The notes beneath the pieces were generated by a model, which saw only the letters and a list, made by a program, of their open reading frames with translations, ran no database searches and was not told the origin of the DNA. From Patescibacteria group bacterium (GTDB lineage Bacteria; Patescibacteriota; Minisyncoccia; Phycocordibacterales; PALSA-1337): a stretch of DNA of 64,000 bases. The stretch covers positions 23,243 to 87,242 of the forward strand of contig JAGWLA010000003.1 of the NCBI GenBank assembly GCA_028865095.1. The letters are read 5' to 3'. Position numbers and translations under genes: made by a program. Within the stretch, counting starts at the first letter, position 1. Each line of letters begins with the position of its first letter. This document shows positions 4,444 through 39,308 of this stretch, piece by piece.

Positions 4444-5751
4444 ATGAAGGAGATGGAGACAGGCCGCACGAGACGGACCGCATTCGGCAGGCTCTTGCGC
4501 ATCCTCGGGCCCGGCCTCATCACCGGCGCCGCCGACGACGACCCGTCCGGCATCGCCACCTATTCGCAGACCGGCGCTCAGTTCGGCTACGGCCAGCTCT
4601 GGGTGTCCCTCTATGCGCTGCCGCTCATGGTGGCGGTCCAGGAAGCTTGCGCCCGGATAGGCAAAGTGACGGGCAAAGGCATCATCGCCGTGGTCAAGGA
4701 GCATTACGGCAAGAAGATAGCCGTCGCCGCCGTCCTCCTCGTGCTGGTCGCCAATACGGTCAACATCGGGGCGGACATCGGCGCCATGGCGTCCGCCCTC
4801 CGCTTGGTCGTCCCCGTCGGCTTCGTCCCTGCCACTCTCGGCTTCACCGCCTTGATGCTCGTCCTCCAGATATTCATGTCGTACCGCAGGTACGCCCGCA
4901 TCCTGAAATGGCTGGCCCTCTCCATGCTCTCCTACGTAGCCACCGCCCTCATCATCAAAGAGCCGTGGGGAGAGCTCGCCCGCGCAACCTTCGTGCCCCA
5001 TATCTCGCTTTCGTTCCCGTTCCTCTTCATCATCGTCGGCGTGATCGGCACCACCATATCCCCGTACATGTTCTTCTGGGAAGCGGATGAAGAGGTCGAA
5101 GAAGAGCGGGCCAAGCATACCGGCAAAGGCGCCGACGGCCGGCCCCTCGTCACCCGCGACGGGGTCCGCCGGATGCGCTGGGACAACTTCCTCGGCATGC
5201 TCACGTCCAACATCGTCACCTGGTGCATCATCGTCACCGCGTCGACCGTGCTCTTCAGCCACGGGGTCACGGATGTCGCCACCGCCGCCGACGCGGCCAA
5301 AGCCCTCGAGCCGCTCGTCGACACCTTCCCGAATGCCGGCTTCCTGGCCAAAGCCCTCTTCGCGTCCGGCATCATAGGCCTCGGCCTGCTGGCGGTGCCC
5401 GTCCTCTCGAGCTCCGCCTCGTACGCCGTCGCGGAAGCGTTCGACTGGCGCGCCAGCCTCAACTTCAAATTGAAGCGCGCCCACGGCTTCTACGGCGTCA
5501 TCACCATCGCCACGGTCATCGGCCTGCTCATCGATTTCGTCGGCATCGACCCGATCAAGGCCCTGGTCGTCACCGCCGTCATCAACGGCCTGATCGCCGT
5601 GCCCCTCATATTCCTCATCGCCCGCATCGCCAACAGCCGCTCCATCATGGGGCAGTGGAAGAGCGGCTGGGCCTCGAATATCTTCGTCTGGCTGACGTTC
5701 GCCGTCATGGCCGCCGCCGCCGTCGCCATGCTGGCGTCGGCCCGTCTCTGA
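4444..5751 (+). CDS. mntH: Nramp-family divalent metal (Mn2+/Fe2+) transporter
   Basis: The Nramp signature 'GPGLITGAADDDPSGIATYSQ' is followed by a multi-TM body. The start was set at MKEMETGR (ATG 4444), inside the longer track ORF. Confidence 0.85.
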   Translation: MKEMETGRTRRTAFGRLLRILGPGLITGAADDDPSGIATYSQTGAQFGYGQLWVSLYALPLMVAVQEACARIGKVTGKGIIAVVKEHYGKKIAVAAVLLVLVANTVNIGADIGAMASALRLVVPVGFVPATLGFTALMLVLQIFMSYRRYARILKWLALSMLSYVATALIIKEPWGELARATFVPHISLSFPFLFIIVGVIGTTISPYMFFWEADEEVEEERAKHTGKGADGRPLVTRDGVRRMRWDNFLGMLTSNIVTWCIIVTASTVLFSHGVTDVATAADAAKALEPLVDTFPNAGFLAKALFASGIIGLGLLAVPVLSSSASYAVAEAFDWRASLNFKLKRAHGFYGVITIATVIGLLIDFVGIDPIKALVVTAVINGLIAVPLIFLIARIANSRSIMGQWKSGWASNIFVWLTFAVMAAAAVAMLASARL

Positions 5752-31261: not shown

Positions 31262-32782
31262 TTATAGGTCCCTGAAAGTCTCGATCTTGGCGCCGATGGA
31301 ATTCAGGCGCGCCGCGAGGTCCTCGTATCCGCGGTTGATGTTATAGACGTTGCGCAGGATGGACGTGCCGGGCGCGGCGAGCATGCCGATCAGGATGATG
31401 ACCGAGGGGCGCAGGGCCGGCGGGCATATGATCTCGGCGGTCTTGAAGCGGGCCGGGCCTTTGACGTAGAAGCGGTGGGGGTCGGCCAGGATGGTGTCCA
31501 CCCCGAGCTTGTCGAGCTCCTTGTAATAGATGGCGCGCTCCTCGTACGACCAGTCATGGATGAAGGTCTGGCCTTCCGCCACTGCGGCGATGACGGCGAA
31601 GAAGGGGAGGTTGTCCATGTTCAGGCCGGGATAGGGGAGGGCGTGGATCTTCTCGTCGAGGGCGACGAGCTTCGAAGGATGGGTCTTCAGGTCGACGAGC
31701 TTGACCCGGCCGTTCAAGCCCGCATAGCTCTTCAGGATGTCGTAGCGGAAGCCCATCTTCTCGAGCTTGAGGAGCTCCATCTCGATGAAATCGATCGGGC
31801 AGCGCTCGATGACGATCGACGAGCCGGTGACGATGGCGGCGGCGATGAGCGACATGGCTTCGATGGGGTCTTCGCCGATGTGATATTCCACGGGGGCGTC
31901 GATCCGCTCGACGCCGTGGACGGTGAGGGTGGAAGTGCCGATCCCTTCGATTTTGACGCCGAGCTGCTCGAGATAGAAGCACATGTCCTGGACCTGGTAG
32001 TTGGCCGACGCGTACTTGATGATGGTGGTGCCGGGGATCTTGGCGGCGGCCATGAGCACGGCTTCGGTGACGGTGTCGCCGGCCTCATAGAGGACGATCT
32101 CGCTCGGGCGGAGCCCCGAATGGGAGACGTCGTAATGGCGCGAGCTCGCCTCGATCGAGATGCCGAGCTTCTCGAGGGCGTAGAAGTACGGCTTGACCGT
32201 GCGCGAGCCGAGGCGGCAGCCGCCCGCTTGGGGGATGGAGAAAGCCTTCTCCCGATGGACGAGGGAGCCGATGAGCATGATGCAGCTCCTGGTCTTGGCG
32301 GCCGCGTCGTAGTCGATCTCGCCGAGGCGGAGCTTGGCGGGAGGGGTGATGGTCAGGTCGTTCCCGCTCCATGAAGCGCCGACGCCGATGGACTGGAGGA
32401 CTTCGACGATCCTGAATACCTCCTCGATCTTCGGGGCGTTCTTGAGCACGGTCGGGCTCTCGTTCAGCAGGGACGCGCAGAGGATGCCGACGGCGCCGTT
32501 CTTCGAGGTTCGCACGGTGATGTTCCCGCGGAGCTTCCGGCCCCCTTCGACCTTGAAATTGATCGTGCCGCCTTTCGACAGGCTGACGATCTCGCGGTCG
32601 AGGGCGGCGCTGATCCGGGCCAGCGTCTTGGTGGAGAGGTTCTGCTCGCCTTTCTCGATGCGGGCCACCGCGCTCTGGGTGGTGCCGACTTTCTTGGCGA
32701 GCTCGGCCTGGGTGAGGCCGCGGTCTTCGCGGAGGCGGGCGATGAGGGATCCGATATGTTCGAGCGATCGGTCTTTTTTCAT
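31262..32782 (-). CDS. murA: XRE-family HTH domain fused to UDP-N-acetylglucosamine 1-carboxyvinyltransferase
   Basis: Residues 1-65 are a Cro/C1-type HTH ('LTQAELAKKVGTTQSAVARIEKGEQNLSTKTLARISAAL'). Residues about 75-506 are full-length MurA ('KLRGNITVRTSKNGAVGILCASLL', catalytic 'PQAGGCRLGSRTV', C-terminal 'NINRGYEDLAARLNSIGAKIE'). Confidence 0.85.
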   Translation of the reverse strand: MKKDRSLEHIGSLIARLREDRGLTQAELAKKVGTTQSAVARIEKGEQNLSTKTLARISAALDREIVSLSKGGTINFKVEGGRKLRGNITVRTSKNGAVGILCASLLNESPTVLKNAPKIEEVFRIVEVLQSIGVGASWSGNDLTITPPAKLRLGEIDYDAAAKTRSCIMLIGSLVHREKAFSIPQAGGCRLGSRTVKPYFYALEKLGISIEASSRHYDVSHSGLRPSEIVLYEAGDTVTEAVLMAAAKIPGTTIIKYASANYQVQDMCFYLEQLGVKIEGIGTSTLTVHGVERIDAPVEYHIGEDPIEAMSLIAAAIVTGSSIVIERCPIDFIEMELLKLEKMGFRYDILKSYAGLNGRVKLVDLKTHPSKLVALDEKIHALPYPGLNMDNLPFFAVIAAVAEGQTFIHDWSYEERAIYYKELDKLGVDTILADPHRFYVKGPARFKTAEIICPPALRPSVIILIGMLAAPGTSILRNVYNINRGYEDLAARLNSIGAKIETFRDL

Positions 32783-32840
32783 AGGGAAGGGGATTTGTAT
32801 TCATAAGGCGGCGCAGGGCCGCTAATAGGCTGTTCGTCTA

Positions 32841-32858
32841 TTATAGCATATATGCTAT
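32841..32858 (+). promoter_or_regulatory. Perfect 18-bp palindrome TATAGCATATATGCTATA in the HTH-murA upstream region (candidate operator)
   Basis: It lies about 60 bp upstream of the HTH-murA start codon, in a divergent AT-rich intergenic region. Confidence 0.4.
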
Positions 32859-32960
32859 ATGCTTTTCAAGGGGTGTGGATAGCCGGAAGAGGCTGTACGC
32901 AGGGAATGATGTGGCTGGGCCATCATCTATGATAATATTGCGGACATAACCACAGCTACA

Positions 32961-33242
32961 ATGAAGATATTCATCGCAGGAGGCATGTCTAGATACGCGG
33001 GACATCGCGCTATCGGAATAATCGGTTGGTACGGAGTGGCCGCGACCATCGCGGCATATATTCTGGTGAGCTTCGGCGCATTGCCGCCGGCGAGCCTTTG
33101 GTATCAAGGCCTGAATCTCACGGGCGCGCTCGGCGTTACGATCGAGACGTGGGTGCGTCGCGACTATCAGCCGTTCTGGCTCAATCTCATCTGGGCTGTC
33201 ATCGCTGCCTCAGCTATCGTCAATCTATCGATCCATATCTGA
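32961..33242 (+). CDS. Hypothetical small membrane protein (93 aa, 3 TM)
   Basis: Hydrophobic ORF divergent from murA. Confidence 0.4.
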   Translation: MKIFIAGGMSRYAGHRAIGIIGWYGVAATIAAYILVSFGALPPASLWYQGLNLTGALGVTIETWVRRDYQPFWLNLIWAVIAASAIVNLSIHI

Positions 33243-33500
33243 AGCGCGTATCATCCTGCCGCGCGGGCCTCCCCGTTCTGCCTATCGATGGGTTTTTGTA
33301 GCCGTGGGATCCCACGGCTACAAAAACTAGCGTGCATGACCGGCACATCGTGCGCCCCAAAGTGAACTCCCAAAGTGAACACGGACAATCAAGCACAATC
33401 AAAAGAGCCCGTTTCGATGGAGCGCGCCGGCGCCCCGGCCCTTCGCGGCCGGAGCGGGTTCTTCTCCTCCCGCACCCTATATGCTATAGTCGCCTCACTT

Positions 33501-34514
33501 ATGAGCATATTCTCCTCGAAGCTCGGCATCGACCTCGGCACGGCCAATACGCTCGTTTTCGTGCCCGGCAAGGGCATCGTCCTGAACGAACCGTCGGTCG
33601 TGGCCGTCTCGGAGGTCGACAAGCGCGTCATGGCGGTCGGCAACGAGGCCAAAGAGATGGTCGGCCGCACGCCCGATTCTATCATCGCCTATCGCCCCAT
33701 GAAGGACGGGGTCATCGCCGATTACCGGGTGACCGAGGCCATGCTCCGCTATTTCATCGACAAGTCCCTCGGCAGGTTCTCCCTCTGGAAGCCCGAAGTG
33801 ATGGTCTCCGTGCCTGCGGGCGTGACTTCGACCGAGCGCCGCGCCGTCATCGAGGCGGCTCTCCGGGCGGGCGCCAAGAACGCCTACGTGGTCAAGGAGC
33901 CCATCCTGGCGGCCATCGGAGCCGGCATCCCCATCCAGGAGGCCCGCGGCCACATGGTGGTGGACATCGGCGGCGGCACCACCGACGTGGCGGTCATCTC
34001 CCTCGGCGGCATCGTCTCTTCGACGTCGGTCAAAGTGGCGGGCACCAAGCTCGACGCGGCCATCGCCGACCATATCAAGAAGAACTTCAACCTGGCCATC
34101 GGCGACCACATGTCCGAGATCATCAAGATCCAGATCGGCTCCGCCATCCCTCTCGACCAGGAGCTCGCCATGACCGTTAAGGGCCGCGACTTCATCTCCG
34201 GCCTGCCGCGCTCGACCGAGATCAAGACCAATGAGATCGTCAAAGCCCTGGCGTCCCCGCTCCGCGACATGATCAAAGCCATCAAGGACGTCCTCCAGGA
34301 GACGCCGCCCGAGCTCGCGGCCGACATCATCGACCAGGGCATCACCATGACCGGCGGCTCGTCCCTCCTGCGCAACCTGCCCGAGCTCGTCTTCCGCCGC
34401 ACGGGCGTCAAAGCCCAGCTCGCCGAAGACCCCTTGCTGTGCGTGGTCAAAGGGACCGGCATCGCCCTCGACCACCTCGACGTCTACAAGAAGGCGATCG
34501 TCAGCAAGCGGTAG
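33501..34514 (+). CDS. mreB: Rod-shape-determining protein MreB (paralog 1)
   Basis: 'GIDLGTANTLVFV', 'EPSVVAV', 'VVDIGGGTTDVAVISLGG' actin-fold motifs. The start was set at MSIFSSKLG. Confidence 0.9.
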   Translation: MSIFSSKLGIDLGTANTLVFVPGKGIVLNEPSVVAVSEVDKRVMAVGNEAKEMVGRTPDSIIAYRPMKDGVIADYRVTEAMLRYFIDKSLGRFSLWKPEVMVSVPAGVTSTERRAVIEAALRAGAKNAYVVKEPILAAIGAGIPIQEARGHMVVDIGGGTTDVAVISLGGIVSSTSVKVAGTKLDAAIADHIKKNFNLAIGDHMSEIIKIQIGSAIPLDQELAMTVKGRDFISGLPRSTEIKTNEIVKALASPLRDMIKAIKDVLQETPPELAADIIDQGITMTGGSSLLRNLPELVFRRTGVKAQLAEDPLLCVVKGTGIALDHLDVYKKAIVSKR

Positions 34515-38198: not shown

Positions 38199-39308
38199 AT
38201 GGCTAAGAAAGGAGCATTCACGGGCATAGCGGCGGGCTTGAAAGGGGTGAAAGGCTGGAAGGACAGGCTCTTCTCGGGCGCGTCCAACGACATCGGCATC
38301 GACCTCGGCACCGCTAACACGCTCGTCTACGTCCGCGGCAAAGGCATCGTGGTCAACGAGCCTTCGGTGGTCGCGGTCAACCAGAAGACCGGGCAGGTGG
38401 TGGCCGTCGGCAGCACCGCCAAAGAGATGCTCGGCAGGACCCCCACCCATATCGCCGCCGTCAGGCCGCTCGTCGACGGCGTCATCTCCGATTTCGAAGT
38501 GACCGAAGAGATGCTCTCGTATCTCATGAAGCGCGCGTCCGAGTATCTCCCCAAGCGCTTCCTCGGCCCGCGGGTGGTGATCGGCGTGCCCTCCGGCGTG
38601 ACGAACGTCGAGGTGAGGGCCGTCCGCGACGCCGCCCGGAACGCCGGCGCCCGCGAGGTCTATATCGTCGAGCAGCCCATGGCCGGAGCCATCGGCATCC
38701 GCTTGCCGGTCCATGACCCGGTGGGCTCGATGGTCATCGACATCGGCGGCGGCACCACCGACATCGCCGTCATCTCCCTCGGCGGCATCGTACGCTCGAA
38801 GAACCTCAAGATCGCCGGAGACAAGCTCAACAACGACATCATCTCCTACATCCGGAACGAGTTCAAGATACTGATCGGCGACACCACGGCCGAGCAGGTC
38901 AAGATCGCCGTCGGCGCCGTCGTCCCCGACGAGCCGCTCGAGACCACCATCCGCGGCCGCGACCTCATCACCGGCTTGCCGCGCGAAGTGGTCATCACCG
39001 ACAGCGACATCCGCGAAGCCATGAGCCAGTCCATCGAGACCCTGGTCGAAGCCTCGAAGGAGGTCCTCGAGACCACGCCCCCCGAGATCCTGTCCGACGT
39101 CATGCGCCGCGGCGTCTTCCTGGTCGGCGGCGGCGCGCTCATCAAAGGCCTCGACGCTCTCTTGTCCGAGACGCTGAAGCTCCCGGTGACCGTGGCCGAC
39201 GACCCGCTCACCGCCATCGCCCGCGGGGCCGGCATCATCCTCGAGGACCTCGACGGCTTCCGTTCCGTCCTCATCGAAAGCGAAGATGACCTACCTTCGG
39301 CAGCGTAG
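38199..39308 (+). CDS. mreB: MreB paralog 2
   Basis: 'GIDLGTANTLVYV', 'EPSVVAV', 'VIDIGGGTTDIAVISLGG'. Confidence 0.85.
   Translation: MAKKGAFTGIAAGLKGVKGWKDRLFSGASNDIGIDLGTANTLVYVRGKGIVVNEPSVVAVNQKTGQVVAVGSTAKEMLGRTPTHIAAVRPLVDGVISDFEVTEEMLSYLMKRASEYLPKRFLGPRVVIGVPSGVTNVEVRAVRDAARNAGAREVYIVEQPMAGAIGIRLPVHDPVGSMVIDIGGGTTDIAVISLGGIVRSKNLKIAGDKLNNDIISYIRNEFKILIGDTTAEQVKIAVGAVVPDEPLETTIRGRDLITGLPREVVITDSDIREAMSQSIETLVEASKEVLETTPPEILSDVMRRGVFLVGGGALIKGLDALLSETLKLPVTVADDPLTAIARGAGIILEDLDGFRSVLIESEDDLPSAA

Follow-up and report, generated by a model that had tools for sequence, protein, structure and literature searches.

HTH-MurA, a MurA enzyme fused to an XRE-type DNA-binding domain: a candidate enzyme-repressor of cell-wall precursor synthesis in Patescibacteria and Actinomycetota

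MurA, the enzyme of EC class 2.5.1.7 and the target of fosfomycin, catalyzes the committed step of cell-wall synthesis, and its known controls comprise proteolysis in Firmicutes, activation by phosphorylated CwlM in mycobacteria, and feedback by UDP-N-acetylmuramic acid (UDP-MurNAc). The window analyzed here, a 64-kb stretch of DNA from a member of the Patescibacteria (64,000 nucleotides, contig JAGWLA010000003.1), encodes a MurA that carries a helix-turn-helix (HTH) domain of the XRE type at its N-terminus and is referred to below as HTH-MurA. This protein is probably a bifunctional enzyme-repressor, in which an active MurA is combined with an HTH that would bind a dyad in the promoter of its own gene and link UDP-sugar status to the transcription of murA and, in relatives, of glmS. 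The computational evidence consists of the two-domain architecture, an intact active site, the conservation and covariation of the predicted operator, its loss together with the HTH, its presence at glmS, and the existence of relatives without the catalytic Cys. Judged by fold and active site, HTH-MurA appears as a member of the MurA clade and, judged by its N-terminal domain and predicted operator, as an XRE regulator.

The gene and its parts are located in the window as follows:

31262–32782, reverse strand: complete HTH-MurA gene, 506 codons plus a stop codon at 31262–31264
32588–32743, reverse strand: XRE/Cro-C1 HTH domain (Pfam HTH_3), residues 14–65, delimited by Pfam and by the helices of the AlphaFold2 model
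32558–32587, reverse strand: inter-domain linker, residues 66–75, from an alignment without large indels and a low predicted local distance difference test score (pLDDT)
31265–32557, reverse strand: full MurA (enolpyruvyl transferase) domain, residues 76–506, from Pfam, NCBIfam, PDB, and Foldseek
32216–32218, reverse strand: codon of the catalytic Cys189 (Cys115 in E. coli) in the motif GGCRLGSR, from the alignment to E. coli MurA

The reading frame of 506 residues is unbroken, with one possible ATG start and zero internal stops in the analysis of the open reading frames of the window. A first-pass annotation of this DNA had described an in-frame fusion of an HTH of about 65 residues to a MurA of about 430 with the catalytic Cys retained in GGCRLG, and had called for a domain scan and a survey of related genomes for fused and split forms. 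The description is borne out in all its parts, sizes included. Both domains exceed the Pfam thresholds, namely HTH_3 at residues 14–65 (E 1.1e-16, 61 bits against a cut-off of 23) and EPSP_synthase (PF00275) at residues 78–490 (E 2.1e-42). A sequencing frameshift or two-gene artefact is excluded, since a 100% identical protein of 506 residues is deposited at NCBI (in a Patescibacteria metagenome-assembled genome, on a 108-kb contig) and the best 120 of more than 8000 homologues, at 69–76% identity, all share the two domains. Moreover, a scan of one genome per species returned at least 600 matching stretches, at least 595 of which are confirmed to encode a relative. The comparisons of loci given below rest on the best 80 reference-genome loci, which comprise 76 fused genes and four orthologues that lack the HTH.

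The C-terminal part passes the NCBIfam MurA subfamily NF006873 (317.3 bits, cut-off 297), and its strong sequence matches in PDB are all MurA, the best being 3r38 (E 8.6e-51). Residues K22, N23, R91, C115, R120, D305, R331, R371, and R397 (numbered on an E. coli MurA sequence whose landmark residues were verified) are kept, without exception in the 120 close homologues compared, and none of the 81 aligned sequences (the window protein and the 80 loci) lacks the catalytic Cys. The AlphaFold2 model (pLDDT 87.5, predicted template-modelling score 0.80) contains a complete, two-lobed MurA fold, which Foldseek aligns to solved MurA structures with target-normalised template-modelling scores of 0.86–0.93 at 24–28% identity, the top 45 matches being MurA or NikO throughout. 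HTH-MurA thus shares fold and catalytic residues with the canonical MurAs of E. coli, E. cloacae, and Listeria (MurA1; structures 1uae, 1naw, and 3r38), and its MurA domain would, at the level of sequence, be catalytically competent. It differs from them in 75 additional residues of HTH and linker, as well as in one substrate-binding motif and an equivalog score considered below.

The N-terminal part finds its best NCBIfam match in the type II antitoxin family TIGR03070, besides PRK08154 at residues 3–68, and a sequence search of PDB matches it to the 434 repressor, C.BclI, HipB, and SinR. Its modelled helices span residues 5–20, 25–32, 36–43, and 51–60 (block pLDDT 81–92), and no solved structure among the Foldseek matches covers this part of the model. 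The sequence of the recognition helix, T35-Q36-S37-x-x-A40-R41-x-E43-x-G45-x-Q47-N48, does not vary in Paceibacteria and hardly varies across four lineages, with the cross-lineage consensus T-[TS]-Q-S-x-[VI]-x-R-[IM]-E-x-G-x-Q-N. The linker is predicted to be flexible, the model being of low confidence at approximately residues 61–72 (pLDDT below 50 at residues 67–71), and its length varies by at most one residue across phyla.

The region 32783–32960, which the first-pass annotation had singled out as a candidate binding region, contains two overlapping elements:

32842–32859, no strand: perfect 18-bp palindrome TATAGCATATATGCTATA, the predicted operator of the HTH, from motif search and conservation
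32840–32869, reverse strand: sigma-70-type promoter with the -35 hexamer TTGAAA at 32869–32864, an 18-nt spacer, and an extended -10 (TG-c-TATAAT) whose hexamer lies at 32845–32840

The promoter matches 11 of 12 consensus positions and has the extended -10 TG, and the palindrome occupies the promoter spacer together with the first four bases of the -10. With up to three mismatches allowed, the palindrome is the sole match in the 64 kb, which hold no further copies of the operator, and 100 shuffles yielded none. Among the fused loci, a strict motif was found within 150 bp upstream of the gene in 63 of 76, as against five weak matches in the remaining 884 kb of flanks, and a relaxed best-site search recovered an operator in 75 of 76. 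The site starts 26–30 nt before the start codon in most loci of Saccharibacteria and Actinomycetota, and the cultured carriers Nocardioides, Nonomuraea phyllanthi, and Humibacillus xanthopallidus (NZ_CP084995.1) have TATCTCATATnTGAGATA at the promoter of the gene. The operators of the four lineages are:

Paceibacteria: TATAGC(A/G)TATATGCTATA
Saccharibacteria: TATATCATnnnTGATATA
Actinomycetota: TATCTCAyATnTGAGwTA
Uhrbacteria: TATACCACATATGGTATA

The two half-sites change together from one lineage to another: at the dyad pair 4/15, 40 loci have A.T and 26 have C.G, and at the pair 5/14, 53 have T.A and 16 have G.C. Such paired changes are predicted by selection for a dimeric binding site and not by a simple -10 element. 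The half-site centres are separated by approximately 11 bp, one helical turn, as in the operators of 434- and P22-type repressors. The four HTH-less orthologues (L016, L019, L020, and L026), all from Paceibacteria and located in the same slot between mreB and priA, have the dyad in none of four cases, L016 retaining the -10 half only, and nothing resembling it was found at the canonical murA loci L208 and L209 of the candidate phyla radiation (CPR). HTH-MurA therefore appears to have, like autoregulated XRE proteins, a dyad operator in its own promoter, and the coupling of precursor flux to transcription suggested by the first-pass annotation, with autoregulation as an example, gains support from the conservation of this putative operator and from its compensatory changes.

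Beside the -35 element, a 9-mer resembling a DnaA box (TTATCCACA; CTATCCACA in the window, at 32874–32882 on the reverse strand) lies approximately 20–28 nt upstream of the operator. When one mismatch is allowed, 10 of the 16 fused promoters of Paceibacteria contain it, as does none of the four HTH-less loci; the background frequency is 0.31 per kb. Besides the window, the carriers are L001, L002, L004, L005, L006, L009, L010, and L011, as well as L008 on the opposite strand. DnaA may thus have an input into the murA–priA promoter.

The same palindrome is also found at other genes. An exact-match scan of metagenomes with the Paceibacteria palindrome gave at least 120 loci with at least 123 sites, which, among the matches listed, stand in the following contexts:

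7 sites: upstream of HTH-murA
37 sites: upstream of small XRE genes
24 sites: upstream of cassettes of a Gp49/HigB-like toxin and an XRE antitoxin
6 sites: upstream of glmS
49 sites: other or unresolved context

Examples at XRE genes and toxin–antitoxin cassettes, on CPR-like metagenome contigs (L081–L200), are L105 at about 1003, L186 at about 2783, L099, L124, L135, and L143. Since the palindrome is common and the HTH of the linked small XRE and antitoxin genes is 33–63% identical to the one fused to MurA, the HTH of HTH-MurA belongs to an antitoxin-like XRE subfamily that shares an operator type, which suggests a shared origin and possible cross-talk. It resembles the HigA/HipB-type antitoxins of Gp49/HigB cassettes in this HTH and in the 18-bp palindrome upstream, and differs from them in that its HTH is fused to an enzyme and has no toxin partner. 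The 64-kb window contains no match to a Gp49-type toxin, the cognate toxin expected of a HigA-like antitoxin, and because there is no toxin partner HTH-MurA is not the antitoxin of a toxin–antitoxin system.

The glmS gene encodes the entry enzyme for the synthesis of UDP-N-acetylglucosamine (UDP-GlcNAc). The six glmS loci selected through the palindrome all have TATAGCATATACGCTATA at 11–17 nt before the ATG, and their GlmS proteins are only 58–78% identical to one another. Four glmS genes selected independently by homology, with a GlmS profile search (in the complete Kaiserbacteria genome CP060229.1, two Nomurabacteria assemblies, and one JGI contig), carry the same TATAGCATATACGCTATA in four of four cases, ending 11–12 nt before the ATG. 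In L208 (9316–11263), a Paceibacterota locus with a canonical unfused MurA beside murG, glmS lies directly downstream of a gene for a TrmB-family regulator and has no palindrome, and this regulator may represent an alternative solution for the control of glmS.

Some relatives have kept both domains without the catalytic residue. Seven representatives at 33–41% identity (P0130, P0133, P0140, P0145, P0149, P0182, and P0184) retain HTH_3 and EPSP_synthase, while Cys115 is replaced by K, E, K, P, P, N, or G, and K22, R91, R120, or R397 are often lost as well. The gene for P0145 (L210, 3558–6530) is divergent from a canonical murA with intact catalytic residues, followed by murB, and a Mur ligase gene follows P0145 itself; the 84-bp intergenic region contains TATAACATATATGCTATA, one mismatch away from the Paceibacteria operator. 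P0149 (L211, 3638–6554) is the last in a string of genes for NUDIX, NTP_transferase, and Cys-less HTH-MurA proteins, and TATATCATATAGGATATA, a palindrome of the Saccharibacteria type, precedes the string. The persistence of the MurA fold together with the HTH even where catalysis is lost points to ligand sensing, and these relatives form a natural series from enzyme-regulator to pure sensor.

In the mechanism that we propose, the C-terminal 430 residues or so would act as a competent MurA, and the N-terminal HTH, on a flexible linker of approximately 10 residues, would bind the 18-bp dyad as a dimer. As the operator overlaps the -10 of its own promoter, bound protein would block RNA polymerase, and the effect expected from this layout is repression and not activation. 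In Paceibacteria, where the same operator overlaps the glmS promoter, HTH-MurA rather than an XRE of the toxin–antitoxin type would occupy this site and would probably control the entry into UDP-GlcNAc synthesis too. When UDP-GlcNAc binds, MurA is known to pass from an open to a closed form, and with UDP-MurNAc and the phosphoenolpyruvate (PEP) adduct it forms a tight, dormant complex. From this established open-to-closed biochemistry, and from the sensor-only relatives, we infer that the MurA fold serves as the sensor and that its occupancy by a nucleotide sugar changes the presentation of the two tethered HTHs and sets DNA binding. As a working guess, the ligand-bound closed form would be the better repressor, a choice of direction and ligand that we consider about evenly balanced, and closed-form repression would amount to end-product feedback on murA and glmS. 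A broader proposal is more tentative and, in our judgement, falls somewhat short of an even chance: HTH-MurA would be a metabolite-gated factor that reads UDP-GlcNAc or UDP-MurNAc in its own active site and sets the transcription of both glmS and murA, and that has spawned dead sensor paralogues regulating canonical murA–murB and has been exchanged between Saccharibacteria and Actinomycetota.

Several observations weigh against HTH-MurA as an enzyme-repressor and are best considered together with the alternatives that they favour. The protein falls short of the murA equivalog TIGR01072 (308 against a cut-off of 392.7), and the UDP-diphosphate motif S162-V163-G164 has become G-D-T, which is invariant in the clade, where canonical representatives have S-V-T or S-V-G. 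Moreover, canonical unfused MurAs exist in CPR, one of the Cys-less proteins lies beside canonical murA–murB, and the actinobacterial copies look horizontally acquired, in genomes that probably have a separate, native housekeeping MurA as well. These features would be expected if the fused protein worked chiefly as a transcription factor, its MurA fold serving only to sense UDP-sugar or PEP, with catalysis left to a separate canonical MurA in the same genome. We consider this unlikely, in view of the catalytic residues, which unlike those of the pseudoenzyme branch are invariant in the close homologues and conserved in every lineage examined, and of the canonical-type MurAs of CPR, which are found under different lineage names and in different synteny. 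The HTH-less orthologues, furthermore, fill the same syntenic slot, which suggests that this locus is the murA of these genomes, and the 64-kb window contains no second murA (and no other close XRE). A remodelling of the whole UDP pocket was also considered and rejected, since the E at the position of K160 is the usual residue and Saccharibacteria and Actinomycetota retain H125, so that only the change from S-V-G to G-D-T is specific to the clade.

The operator admits readings of its own. Part of the conservation of its right half is promoter conservation, because this half doubles as the extended -10 (TGnTATAAT); in Paceibacteria, mreB shares the short divergent region that contains the site, and the palindrome is common in other contexts in CPR metagenomes. 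The palindrome might then act simply as a promoter element, strong or bidirectional, with the HTH vestigial or used for protein–protein contacts, but we regard this as very improbable. The left half, which has no promoter role on the murA strand, is nevertheless conserved and co-varies in four lineages, including the high-GC Actinomycetota with their different promoter consensus and no divergent mreB. The dyad is lost with the HTH while the -10 half can persist, as in L016, the recognition helix is invariant, and the other contexts are overwhelmingly genes encoding a related XRE, as expected of an operator. A less remote alternative, though still one that we doubt, is that HTH-MurA autoregulates only itself and that a different XRE, an antitoxin or a small regulator, binds the glmS operator of Paceibacteria. 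The exact palindrome is not specific to murA and glmS, since 61 of the 123 listed sites belong to small XRE or Gp49/HigB–XRE genes, and the glmS operator could thus be served by another XRE. Moreover, the presence of both operators, at glmS and at murA, in a single genome is presumed, and the 64-kb window contains no glmS, which makes glmS only a putative target in this genome. Against this alternative, the glmS operator is retained before the divergent GlmS proteins and in all four of the unbiased samples, a constancy that contrasts with the variable, mobile nature of toxin–antitoxin cassettes. MurA and GlmS are also the two pathway-entry steps linked by UDP-GlcNAc, and the CPR lineage with a canonical unfused MurA lacks the glmS operator and has the TrmB-family gene directly upstream instead.

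An enzyme-repressor of this kind would have functional counterparts of different descent. BirA (biotin protein ligase and repressor of the bio operon), PutA, and NadR likewise combine an enzyme and a DNA-binding domain in one polypeptide, their operators are located in the promoters of genes of the pathway concerned, and the ligand state of the enzyme gates repression. HTH-MurA, with an apparently competent enzyme, a DNA-binding domain, and putative operators at genes of the same pathway, has part of the traits by which such trigger enzymes are recognised, a further one being the proposed switch of DNA binding by substrate or product. There is no homology, however: the DNA-binding domain is a winged HTH in BirA and a ribbon-helix-helix in PutA, NadR carries another set of enzymes, and HTH-MurA joins MurA to a Cro/C1-type HTH_3. 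BzdR (PRK08154) shares the layout of an N-terminal XRE HTH and a C-terminal effector-binding fold, which in BzdR resembles shikimate kinase. Its enzyme-like domain is regarded as non-catalytic, in contrast to the fully conserved active site of HTH-MurA, and it is the Cys-less relatives (P0130, P0145, and others) that resemble BzdR in this respect. The glmS ribozyme, the small RNAs GlmY and GlmZ, NagC/DasR, and ClpCP–ReoM all serve the same goal of matching the entry into hexosamine and peptidoglycan synthesis to precursor levels, but by other mechanisms; in HTH-MurA the role of transcription factor would fall to the pathway enzyme itself.

Among the best 80 loci, the match extends over the full protein, and identity is 64–74% in Paceibacteria and Taylorbacteria, approximately 60% in Uhrbacteria, 55–59% in Saccharibacteria and Nanosynbacter, and 57–59% in cultured Actinomycetota, namely Humibacillus xanthopallidus (complete genome), Janibacter, Nocardioides, Brachybacterium, Actinopolymorpha, and Mobilicoccus. 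In a neighbour-joining tree, the fused proteins form a clade, with a few members secondarily unfused, apart from canonical MurAs, and the actinobacterial copies (L027–L080) are sister to those of Saccharibacteria (L022–L076) and nested in CPR lineages. This placement suggests horizontal transfer, in either direction, between Saccharibacteria, known epibionts of Actinomycetota, and Actinomycetota. The Asp-type MurA representatives that carried a name were from CPR. The fused arrangement is common to hundreds of species of Patescibacteria and Actinomycetota and has apparently never been studied. Literature searches found no paper describing the HTH-MurA architecture, its operator, or the link to glmS, in agreement with the first-pass annotation, which knew of no characterised example; they returned PMC8066302, which describes a Cys-to-Asp MurA of Mucilaginibacter, PMC12419801, which deals with HTH fusions to other domains, and PMC12565409, matched only through the author name Murarka, none of which is relevant to the fusion. 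That annotation had also left unsaid that the architecture is common but annotated as plain MurA, that it is present in cultured Actinomycetota, and that its HTH is of the toxin–antitoxin-type XRE subfamily. In a Nonomuraea cluster of 246 sequences, the RefSeq and UniRef names alternate between "UDP-N-acetylglucosamine 1-carboxyvinyltransferase" and "helix-turn-helix domain-containing protein".

With gene names assigned from translated sequences, the neighbours of HTH-murA in the window are priA, a gene for a small membrane protein, and mreB. In Paceibacteria the gene stands in a conserved block of housekeeping genes, with proS, rseP, frr, holB, and mreB on one side and, divergently transcribed, HTH-murA, priA, def, and fmt on the other, hpf coming next. 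Saccharibacteria have glyA as the divergent neighbour, and in Actinomycetota the neighbours vary by family. The small membrane protein, predicted from a gene of 93 codons at 32961–33242 on the forward strand, has no Pfam match and lies between the murA promoter region and mreB; its gene, divergent from HTH-murA, could be served by the same regulatory region. Another MreB-like coding region (38268–39275, forward strand; 43% identical to the query MreB) was found approximately 4 kb from mreB (33375–34514), so that this bacterium with a small genome has two actin-like paralogues. In L007, a stand-alone XRE HTH (4751–4897, reverse strand) that is 47% identical to the fused HTH is located just downstream of HTH-murA on the opposite strand. 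Elsewhere in the window, positions 22466–27107 form an island with a guanine–cytosine content of 0.47–0.55, against approximately 0.63 in the rest, with the following features:

22466–24523, reverse strand: helicase-like gene, 685 residues, with C-terminal repeats
24665–25978, forward strand: sigma-70-like gene
26556–26806, reverse strand: group I intron (Rfam RF00028, 56 bits), overlapping the next feature
26658–27107, reverse strand: open reading frame resembling an HNH endonuclease

No rRNA was found near the intron, and the island is probably a mobile insertion.

To our knowledge, very few regulators can be recognised in Patescibacteria, and hardly any of their regulons are defined. In the present case, the sequence itself displays a candidate regulator together with its predicted operator and two putative target promoters, and a MurA that acts as a DNA-binding regulator would, if confirmed, represent a new control logic. 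The shared layout of gene and operator in cultured Actinomycetota makes experiments immediately feasible, and the grouping of the actinobacterial copies as sisters of those from Saccharibacteria is relevant to the question of gene flow between epibionts and their hosts. If the proposal holds true, HTH-MurA and its targets would be among the first defined regulons of Patescibacteria and would constitute a new route of cell-wall homeostasis.

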